Positions 6,001 through 9,000 of a stretch of 48,288 nt of DNA are shown piece after piece. A program made the position numbers. Positions within the stretch are counted from its first letter, which is position 1. The number at the start of each line of letters is the position of its first letter. Source of the DNA: a virus (Duplodnaviria; Heunggongvirae; Uroviricota; Caudoviricetes). Where the stretch lies: the IMG/VR virus record IMGVR_UViG_2923307698_000006. One strand, written 5' to 3'.

Positions 6001-9000
6001 TTCACCTCCACCGCCGTGTGGCGGTCCTTCAGGGCGCTGAAGCTGTAGCGAAACCCCACGCCGTTATCATCCACCACCACATCGCTGTTGGTGTACGGCC
6101 ACACCACATCCGACGGGCGGTCCTGAACGAACGTCAGCGTCTGGCCGTTCCATACCGGCATACAGCGCATCGCCGAGCAGAAATCACTGAGGACGTCCCA
6201 CGCCTTACGCTGTTGTGACAGGTATGCATTAAAGGTCATCCGCGGCTCTGTGCCCCCGAAACCATCCGGCACCGTCTGGTCGCAGTACTGCGCAATGGCA
6301 TACAGCGCCCATTTGTCCACATCCGCCGCCCCCAGACGTTTTCCCATCCCGTAGCGCGGGTGAGTCAGCATGTCCCACAGACACCAGGCCGGGTTGTTGC
6401 TGTATGCCGGTTTCAGGCTGCCGTCCCAGATGCCGCTGTACGTGCGTTTTTCCGGGTCATAGTTTGACGGCACCTGAATAATGCGACCGCGGATATGGTA
6501 GTTCACCGTCATCTGCTGACCGCCAAACTGCTCCGCATCCACCTGCAGCCCCACAATCGCCGTGTTCGGGTAGCACTGTTTCACATCGATGATTTCGGTG
6601 TATGACGACCAGAGCGTCTTATTCTGCAGCTGGTCCGTGGTGCTGTCCGCCGTCTCCCTGACCATCCGGATGTTAAAGGGCCGGGGCGGCAGATTATCCA
6701 GAATCACCGACGCCAGGAACTGCGAGGTGGTCTTGCCGTTAATGGTGACATCCTTTTCCGTCATCCATTTACCACCACGCTCAAGCTGAATCAGCAGGCG
6801 GACAGACGTCGGGTTACGGTCACCCTTTGAGGTGGTCTCCACCAGTGACTGCACCCCGAAGGTAACCCGCAGGCGGTCAATGTTCGCGGACGTAATGGTG
6901 CGCGTCACCGGCTTTGCCTTCGTCACTTCCACGCCCAGTCCGGTTTCAGCTCCGGAGGACTCAAAGCCTTCCGGTGGTGTCTGCTCCTGCTCCCCGGCAC
7001 GCCAGACCGCAGTCACACCGTGTATCACGGGATTACCGTCCGTGTCCGTCAGCGGGGTTTTGTTCACCAGGATACTCTGCAGCCCCTTCACCGGGCCTTC
7101 TATCGGTCCCTCACCAATCGCATCAATCACACTCATCATCTGCGTGGATTTGAGATTATCCTTCGCCTCTCGAGGCGTGTGCGCCCTGCCGCCACCTTTG
7201 CCCATAATGTTCCTCTCAATTGGTATTATTAATCGCAGTGATAGGATATTGCACAGCTATTGCGCGATATCATCAGAACGCTGTTTGTTACCCTGTAACC
7301 AGCAAGCTCAGTCTGTTAACGGAATTAATGAGGGTTTTATGAAATGTAAAATCATTGCTGCCATTGCCATGCTGACAGCAGCATCATGCGGATACGCAGC
7401 AGAACAGGAAGTCCCAATGAACCTTGTCAGTGCTGACGGAAAAGAAGTCAGCATTGGAAAAATAACCATTCAGGAGACCCCCTACGGTCTGCTGTTCACA
7501 CCAGCCCTTCACTCTCTGTCTGAAGGCATTCATGGTTTTCATGTGCACGAAAAAGGAAATTGCGCCCCGGCACTGAAAGACGGAAAACCGGTCGCAGCAT
7601 TATCGGCTGGCGGTCACTTTGACCCGAAAAACACCGGCAAACATCTTGGCCCCTGGTCTCCGGATGGACACCTGGGCGACCTCCCTGCGCTGTTCGTGAC
7701 GCATGACGGAAAAGCGAACTACCCGGTCCTGGCCCCGAGACTGAACTCATTAAAAGAGATTAAAGGGCGTTCTCTCATGCTTCATGCTGGCGGTGATAAC
7801 CATCATGACCATCCGGAGCCCCTGGGCGGTGGTGGTGCGAGAATGGCCTGCGGCATCATTCAATAATCAGTCAGGTAAGGGGCGGGCCCCTTACCTTTAT
7901 TCCTCAGGACGATAAATCCTTTCTCCCTGAAAAGAACGGCACATCCTCCCTCTCTGAGTTAATGTTTTTGTCGTGACATAAGAATAATTCCTTACACTCA
8001 ATCTTCGTAACGCTCCCGCAGTTCCTGTCCGTGAGCACTGCGGGATTTTTTCGCTTTTATGCCTGCCGCCCGATAACCACCACCTTCCCGTCACCGCCTT
8101 CATCACGGGTACTGATGTCCTGGGATATCCGTCGTGAACCAACCAGCATTTCACCGTAAGGCACCGGCATCGGGTTACCCTGGGCAATCATGTTATCCAG
8201 GGAGGAAAAGTACGTGTTCTGTTTACCGTTATCCGTGCTTTTGTACTCCGGTGTTTTTGCCTTCGGGGCCAGCATCTGGGCCACACCGCCCAGTATCATG
8301 CTGGCCCCCAGTGAAAACAGCATCGTGGTGGCAGAAAAACCACCGGCACTCAGGGCTGTACCCCATAACGCCATCGAGCCTCCGGCCGTGAAGAAAGAGC
8401 CCACGATGGCTGCCGCCCCCAGTACAATCTGCAGTCCACCCTTTCCGGCCCCGGCCAGTCGCGGCACAATGTGGATGACCGTTCCCTCACCCAGCTGTTC
8501 GTGAAGACGGGCATACACCGCCTCCGGTGCCGTGTCATCACCGGCAATACGTATCTGGTACCAGCCTTCGTTCATCTGACGGCGAAAGCCCGGCATCTGC
8601 ATCGACAGGGCGCGAATGGCTTCCGCTGCCGTGTTCACATACAGGCTGAGGCGGCGGCCAAATCGTTGCAAATCCCCGTGAAGGCAGATGCGTGCCAGTG
8701 GCGGTGACGCCAGACAGAATGCGTTCGTCGTTGCCATTTTTCGGAATACCTCTCCCGTTTACTCAGTTGTTCAGGCAGATGGTGAAGCAGCTCACCGTTG
8801 CCGCAGTAAATGGCGGCATGGTTCGGTACCGAAGCACCAAAGCAGCACAGCAGAATATCGCCCGCCTGTGCAGAGGACAGGGGCACCCGGTAAAAGCCGG
8901 TGACCGCCATATTGTCCAGGTACAGGTTCTGGCCGTTGCGCCACCAGTCATCCTCACGCTCAAAATCCGGCATATCAATTCCCGCCAGATGGTAGGCATC

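Follow-up and report, generated by a model that had tools for sequence, protein, structure and literature searches.

Genes and signals at the I-J junction

The sequence analysed here, hereafter the window, is the whole stretch of 48,288 nucleotides of the IMG/VR virus record IMGVR_UViG_2923307698_000006. Between the tail genes I and J of this lambda-like E. coli prophage lies a sodC gene of the SodC-F1 type (7339-7866, + strand), which starts with ATG at 7339, ends with TAA at 7864-7866 and encodes 175 amino acids. Both neighbours are on the - strand. The upstream neighbour in the tail operon is the tail assembly gene I (8057-8737, - strand, 226 aa), which matches Pfam Lambda_tail_I (E=1.6e-16), and the downstream neighbour is the tail tip / host-specificity gene J (3726-7205, - strand, 1159 aa), in which seven gpJ domain families were found (Pfam Ig_J, FNIII-A_GpJ, Phage-tail_3, Ig_GpJ_C and others; E 1e-41 to 1e-22). 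The earlier note had described a complete Cu/Zn sodC placed antisense between I and J, and both parts of this description hold; its span of 7206-7900 runs from the J start codon to just beyond the terminator, of which the gene proper takes up only 7339-7866.

A ribosome-binding site GAGGG (7330-7334, + strand) stands 4 nt before the ATG, so that sodC has a site of its own, as had also been claimed. The probable Shine-Dalgarno sequence of J, GAGAGGAAC (7209-7217, - strand), was read from the sequence and would fall inside cassette-specific DNA. Two further reading frames were discarded: the 344-aa ORF from GTG 6832 in the mechanical ORF list is an artefact of the antisense frame of J being left open, and the 96-aa ORF at 7897-8187 (- strand) has no Pfam family, overlaps I out of frame and is not a gene.

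The sodC product is an intact Cu,Zn superoxide dismutase

The sodC product matched Pfam PF00080 Sod_Cu with 111.9 bits (E=3.9e-32; curated cut-off 28.9 bits) over model positions 3-133 of 133, and the NCBIfam equivalog NF007628, "superoxide dismutase [Cu-Zn] SodC", with 218.4 bits (curated cut-off 165 bits). In the latter alignment residues 2-174 of the 175-aa form correspond to model positions 2-172 of 172, and since it begins at residue 2, the start codon is fixed at 7339. Besides, the protein matched solved bacterial SodC structures with E about 1e-62. Judged by these sequence matches, membership in the Cu,Zn superoxide dismutase family is far above chance.

To compare the active site, we aligned five proteins, namely the window SodC, K-12 SodC, Gifsy-2 SodCI, Fels-1 SodCIII and human SOD1. 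It turned out that the copper ligands H68, H70, H93 and H149, the zinc ligands H93, H102, H111 and D114, the disulfide cysteine C171 and the catalytic R168 were invariant across all rows, while the disulfide partner C75 was kept in every bacterial row, the human row being shifted there by a gap. In human SOD1 the copper ligands are H46, H48, H63 and H120, the zinc ligands are H63, H71, H80 and D83 with H63 as the bridging histidine, the disulfide is C57-C146 and the catalytic arginine is R143. A lack of Cu/Zn ligand residues had been named in the earlier note as what would speak against the gene; looked for by alignment, this objection fails, because all the ligands, C75/C171 and R168 are present.

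The leader of the protein has a Lys-rich basic N-terminus, a hydrophobic core, a G-Y-A cleavage motif and an AASC lipobox, features that point to an N-terminal export signal and agree with the signal peptide proposed before. The predicted signal peptide covers residues 1-20 (7339-7398, + strand) and would leave a mature enzyme of 155 aa; the cysteine of the lipobox is Cys17 (7387-7389, + strand).

Identity with the published SodC-F1

The sodC product annotated in the Stx2a phages Stx2_EH1846 and Stx2_EH2201 is 100% identical to the window protein, which differs from SodC-F2 of the EDL933 prophages (P0012, P0015) solely at residue 112, with Leu instead of Pro. As published, sodC-F1 differs from sodC-F2 only by the T at nucleotide 335, which gives Leu in F1 (D'Orazio et al. 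2008, PMC2569942). Codon 112 of the window gene is CTG (Leu), matching this difference, and the window gene is therefore SodC-F1. It is thus an already known gene, the characterised SodC-F1 of pathogenic E. coli, and nothing new.

SodC-F1 and SodC-F2 of O157:H7 are located in prophages CP-933R and CP-933V (PMC2569942), and they share with the window the same protein (F2 save Leu112), the AASC lipobox and the 20/21 cleavage site. The prophage that carries the gene here is nevertheless unlike the O157 phages studied, having a Rac/Qin-like early region and an NleB-family effector; stx2AB had no match in it.

Much of what can be said about expression and biochemistry comes from published work on this same gene. 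Tagged SodC-F was detected in uninduced cultures, in log phase, in stationary phase and anaerobically, and with a lacZ fusion on 299 bp upstream of the O157 gene, placed in the E. coli lab strains QC771 and QC1110, the latter an rpoS mutant, expression was reported to be RpoS-independent (data not shown there; PMC2569942). The SodC-F enzyme is a dimer with about three times the activity of chromosomal SodC, resists proteinase K and EDTA, and melts at 78-87 deg C (PMC2569942). Part of it is in the periplasm and part on the membrane, in agreement with AASC lipobox processing, with cuts by signal peptidase I at 20/21 and by signal peptidase II before C17 (PMC2569942). As to phenotype, sodC mutants were more sensitive to H2O2, combining three sodC mutations did not raise the sensitivity above that of the single mutants, and SodC-F was relatively more abundant inside Caco-2 cells (PMC2569942). 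Because these experiments concern the same gene, they support the reading of the window sodC as lysogenic-conversion cargo that is expressed independently of induction. The part of the earlier claim that concerns resistance to the oxidative burst stands less directly, as it is Salmonella SodCI for which protection from the phagocyte burst has been established, and not directly the E. coli gene, whose link to virulence is indirect and consists of H2O2 killing in vitro and abundance in Caco-2 cells.

These data bear on the possibility that sodC is a decaying passenger, a pseudogene or an inactive paralogue without function. The prophage is apparently damaged in at least one place, the side tail fibre gene being frameshifted by a 1-bp deletion. 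Against decay of sodC, the ORF is full-length relative to the SodC equivalog and keeps the ligands, the disulfide and the arginine, the exact protein occurs on at least 1000 public contigs, and the same protein, SodC-F1, was purified with an activity of 19380 U/mg (PMC2569942). We regard decay as extremely improbable. The gene is intact and can be annotated with confidence as SodC-F1 type, dimeric, partly lipidated and expressed in the lysogen.

Other SodC relatives

Chromosomal SodC of K-12 (b1646) belongs to the same family as the window SodC, with the same fold and ligands, at 59% identity. The chromosomal E. coli enzyme is monomeric, less active, less stable and fully soluble, and its gene is RpoS-dependent, the enzyme being made only in aerobic stationary phase (PMC2569942).

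Two Salmonella prophage genes come closer in setting. SodCIII of Fels-1 (STM0924) occupies the same I-J slot as the window sodC, in the same antisense orientation and with the same size, at 60.5% protein identity, and the region of the J start and its ribosome-binding site is recognisably similar; only about 53 bp separate the sodCIII stop from the I stop, so that Fels-1 has no segment like the PasB-related one described below. SodCI of Gifsy-2 (STM1044; 58.8% identity) is likewise prophage-borne and antisense to the tail operon, but its slot lies between a lom-like gene (STM1043) and L rather than between I and J. In Gifsy-2 lysogens, where the lytic genes are silent, sodCI is one of the few phage genes with high expression. 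The SodCI enzyme is described as a dimer that exceeds chromosomal SodCII in stability and activity (D'Orazio et al. 2008, PMC2569942). When the non-coding flanks of sodC in Fels-1 and Gifsy-2 were compared with those of the window, no alignable homology was found beyond the J start, and since the flanks are unalignable, the Salmonella and E. coli cassettes were not recently exchanged as units.

Transcription signals of sodC

A strict sigma-70 scan of 6900-8300 found no consensus promoter, and under relaxed settings nothing turned up beyond 8/12 matches and three motifs of the extended -10 type; the sodC promoter is for this reason kept as a candidate. The best element is an extended -10, TGgTATTAT (7221-7229, + strand), which may belong to the sodC promoter, TATCAT at 7268-7273 being another candidate. 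The extended -10 falls inside the 299 bp of the published lacZ fusion and reads TGaTATGAT in the allele of strain cM8a, whose locus is 84.5% identical to the window over the 1.2-kb query. Pairwise alignment with the same allele also brought out a 32-nt block in the sodC leader (7257-7288, + strand) that is 100% identical, although the SodC proteins encoded by the two alleles share only 80.6% identity (141/175), which suggests that the block is possibly an unrecognised regulatory element.

Salmonella sodCI is controlled by PhoPQ. With the pattern KGTTTA-N5-KGTTTA and up to 3 mismatches, the search for a PhoP box before the window sodC gave just two 3-mismatch hits, at the ribosome-binding site and the start codon, and the whole window held 119 hits against 85 expected by chance. 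No box was better than chance, and PhoP control like that of SodCI is not supported for the window gene.

Behind the gene lies a terminator, T1 (7873-7902, + strand), with a 10-bp G+C-rich stem, a tetraloop and the tail UUUAUU. Its hairpin (7873-7896) has a dG of -17.9 kcal/mol and a z of -2.4 versus shuffles. The hairpin of the "strong terminator" claimed earlier is thus present; the word "strong" is somewhat generous, the U tract being imperfect (UUUAUUCC). Read on the - strand, this hairpin has GACUGAUUA and not U residues behind it, so T1 is not a terminator of the tail operon and, as far as these bases tell, should not stop the late transcript.

The strand arrangement also bears on whether sodC is of use to the phage itself in the lytic cycle, for instance through protection of the infected cell, with expression alongside the late genes. 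That sodC is embedded in the late tail operon would fit such a role. The gene is, however, opposite in strand to every neighbouring late gene, and the published expression was in uninduced cultures (PMC2569942); because late transcription yields only sodC antisense, we consider a lytic role very improbable.

A PasB-related module downstream of sodC

The distance from the sodC stop to the I stop is 190 bp, which is not mere spacer. At 7969-8051 (+ strand) it contains an 83-nt segment that appears to be the body of a PasB-related sRNA without a promoter and that forms a second terminator, T2, behind sodC: the T2 hairpin lies at 8014-8045 (+ strand), and a run of six U residues follows at 8046-8051. 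This body is 100% identical to a promoter-bearing copy in phage JLK-2012, and 61% identical to the 83-nt PasB of E2348/69. Alignments with cM8a, JLK-2012 and AH21H025 further revealed a vestige of a PasB-type promoter at 7938-7950 (+ strand), in which GGCAC is kept, while the -10 at 7943-7950 reads ATCCTCCC in place of TTATAATT. The A/T-rich upstream element and the -35 are missing in the window, leaving a gap of about 46 bp relative to cM8a, which itself carries sodC together with an intact module. The promoters of the intact modules score 11/12 in cM8a and 10/12 in JLK-2012.

The full form of this module is seen in I-J gaps that lack sodC. There, a + strand unit begins with an A/T-rich element and a -35, ATAAAAnyTCTGAnnnnnTTCACATTT, and continues with a -10 of TATAAT or near, about 100 nt, a hairpin CCCGCAG...CTGCGGG and a U run. 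About a third of the complete E. coli genomes (1845 of 5426) contain the module, and among the matches listed it coincides with no annotated feature, except that a tail assembly gene overlaps it in two rows. In IMG/VR, a pattern scan found it on at least 120 viral contigs, in 73 distinct versions that fall into 16 groups below 93% similarity, in some cases as arrays of three or four copies in tandem. Rfam holds no model for the PasB-type module; over 7100-8200 of the window Rfam gave nothing above noise (STnc400 had 23 bits versus a gathering score of 80), and over the sodC-less I-J gaps nothing was found.

The module is not new, being a PasB-type sRNA. PasB is an abundant 83-nt Hfq-dependent sRNA of EPEC E2348/69 (Pearl Mizrahi et al. 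2021), whose coordinates and Northern probe are given in table S6 (PMC8550237). According to these, it lies in prophage PP6 of E2348/69, flanked by the homologues of I and J and antisense to both, and the probe sequence was found among the module variants. PasB has also been placed in a phage structural-gene operon and reported to be widespread beyond EPEC and EHEC (Zhu, Shabalina and Storz 2026 preprint). The window segment shares with PasB the I-J slot, the antisense strand, the length of 83 nt and the Rho-independent terminator CCCGCAG...CTGCGGG-U6, but the two are only 61% identical and the promoter that PasB-type modules carry is deleted or mutated in the window. The proposed relation is bridged by intermediate variants, which share the promoter motif and the terminator. 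For an sRNA next to sodC, no mention was found in Tree et al. 2014.

Two candidate features of the modules were rejected. The motif upstream of them was considered as a small - strand ORF, with recurring peptides such as NVKNFRNFI, and was dismissed because the variable positions are five contiguous bases, not every third. Besides, TAAGAATAATTCCTTA at 7979-7994 resembles an RcsAB box, and it is not conserved in PasB or in other module variants.

Read from J to I, the locus thus has the order J <- [sodC ->] [T1] [promoter-less PasB-like body with T2] <- I. The sodC cassette takes up the place in which the promoter of the PasB-type module would be expected, and by this comparison one cargo appears to have overwritten the promoter of the other.

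It may be asked whether the unit is mainly a regulatory RNA, either as a sodC mRNA that pairs with the late I-J spacer and so modulates J expression or excludes related phages, or as a source of a PasB-like sRNA from the 3' UTR. T1 has a weak U tract, and the body identical to that of JLK-2012, with its hairpin and U6, follows about 70 nt downstream; PasB is abundant and Hfq-dependent; and superinfection exclusion can be brought about by RNAs antisense within late genes, an example being STnc6030 of BTP1. However, the PasB-type promoter is deleted in the window, and the protein-coding function is fully sufficient to account for conservation; because 7969-8051 is identical to JLK-2012, the conservation of the sRNA body is itself uninformative. 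We therefore hold a mainly regulatory role to be unlikely. A narrower version supposes that T1 read-through transcripts may be processed into a PasB-like Hfq-binding sRNA, since the poor U tract is followed about 70 nt downstream by a PasB-type body without a promoter; to this too we give a small chance.

The sodC unit as a moron

A moron, in the sense of Juhala and Hendrix, is an additional unit of transcription lying between two genes that stand side by side in related phages. In phage JLK-2012 the I and J ends are the same but are separated by 239 bp without sodC, and the homology of this phage with the window stops at the J ATG and picks up again near 7950; in lambda the I-J gap is 60 bp. 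Among E. coli genomes the I/J flanks were matched in 1888, and the full 1.2-kb I-sodC-J arrangement was found in 546 of the 5426 complete genomes, including O157:H7, O103, O111, O145 and O45 strains; two Stx2a phages have it as well. In the O157:H7 genomes the locus is 98-99.2% identical over 1.2 kb. The unit is thus absent at this junction from homologous phages, namely JLK-2012 and many E. coli prophages. Its base composition is unlike that of the surrounding phage genes: the upstream spacer has a G+C of 0.40, sodC one of 0.53 and the downstream spacer one of 0.47, versus 0.58-0.59 in J and I. Its own terminator is one on the + strand only (7873-7896) and is backed by 8014-8051. By position, composition and terminator, the window sodC unit is a moron, with the extended -10 at 7221-7229 as its candidate promoter element.

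The observations made here, that is the gene, its catalytic residues, orientation, position, terminator, low G+C and absence from homologous phages, together with the lysogen expression, RpoS independence, dimeric state, stability, lipidation and H2O2 phenotype taken from published work on the same gene, lead us to the main reading. In it, the window sodC is an independently transcribed moron, expressed in the lysogen, that provides a periplasmic and membrane superoxide dismutase of benefit to the lysogen, and we put its probability at roughly nine in ten.

On this reading, promoter region, ribosome-binding site, sodC and terminator would form a self-contained unit transcribed against the late operon. 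In the lysogen, with the tail genes silent, sodC would be expressed from a promoter of its own, and the pre-protein would be exported via the Sec route. One fraction would be cut by signal peptidase I after residue 20 to give a soluble periplasmic dimer, and the other would be lipidated at Cys17 and stay on the membrane. By dismutating periplasmic superoxide, the enzyme would make the cell more tolerant of exogenous reactive oxygen species. To reach J in lytic growth, late transcription antiterminated by Q would have to cross the I-J spacer of about 850 nt antisense to sodC. Within this scheme the exact promoter and the benefit in vivo are what we infer.

In conclusion, a prophage-borne sodC is textbook lysogenic conversion and matters little as a discovery. 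If T1 read-through transcripts were indeed processed into a PasB-like sRNA, an sRNA regulon would be coupled to sodC expression, and the moron would have taken over an adjacent sRNA gene to serve as its 3' UTR. More generally, the junction of I and J turns out to be a site where lambdoid phages repeatedly carry cargo, namely sodC in E. coli and in Salmonella Fels-1 and, elsewhere, PasB-type modules, single or in tandem up to four.

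PasB-related modules and the terminator-like site between I and J

Immediately 3' of sodC, the window carries a promoter-less copy of a PasB-related small RNA module (7969-8051, +), in front of which a vestige of the module's promoter lies at 7938-7950 (+). Intact modules of this kind consist of a promoter, an RNA of about 100 nt and a terminator, and in 1,845 of 5,426 complete E. coli genomes they occupy the gap between the tail genes I and J of sodC-less lambdoid prophages. The module is not represented in Rfam, and among the matches listed it coincides with no annotated feature save an overlapping tail assembly gene (two rows). 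In some prophages, three or four diverged PasB-type modules stand in tandem in the I-J gap at a spacing of about 220 bp, as in E. coli strain 10 (L009, 507-1441) and in two further compared loci (L060 and L065), and each of these modules has a promoter motif and a terminator of its own.

Just upstream of J, sodC-less phages contain a G+C-rich hairpin followed by UUGUUUUUG on the tail-operon strand (JLK-2012, locus L002, 1749-1772, -; E. coli strain 10, 578-601, -), which is a terminator-like site within the late operon. The window lacks this hairpin.

In the sodC leader, 32 nt (7257-7288, +) are 100% identical to the divergent sodC allele of strain cM8a, while the SodC proteins of cM8a and the window share only 80.6% identity. 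This block may be an operator or leader element.

Other small RNA genes

Several further small RNA genes were located. The AgvB (anti-GcvB) gene (30121-30182, +) and the STnc100 gene (30184-30376, -) are convergent, and the pair takes the position that stx has in Stx phages; stx2AB of the Stx2a phage Stx2_EH1846 gave no blastn match over 300 bp in the window. Rfam matches also include STnc490 within the tail gene region (14259-14382, -), the sok antitoxin RNA of the hokD type I toxin-antitoxin system (36581-36755, -) and DicF (43160-43211, +). The last adjoins a Rac/Qin-like immunity region, which has racR, ydaT-like and dicB genes in the closest annotated relative. No tRNA genes were found in the window.

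Prophage end, tail fibre and lom

At the prophage end, a gene for a 326-aa NleB-family type III effector (arginine glycosyltransferase) is present (228-1208, -; Pfam SseK_NleB, E=5e-171; NCBIfam NF011909, 668 bits vs 595). The side tail fibre gene (1657-2975, -) is split into two ORFs, a 313-aa N-terminal and a 92-aa C-terminal one, by a 1-bp deletion near 2083 in a collagen-like repeat, with the intact gene of Stx2_EH1846 as reference; either the tail fibre is defective or the deletion is a mistake in the sequencing. Adjoining J on its downstream side is a Lom/Ail-family outer-membrane protein gene (3034-3693, -), a further classical moron of this part of the genome, which in this prophage shares the strand of the tail genes.
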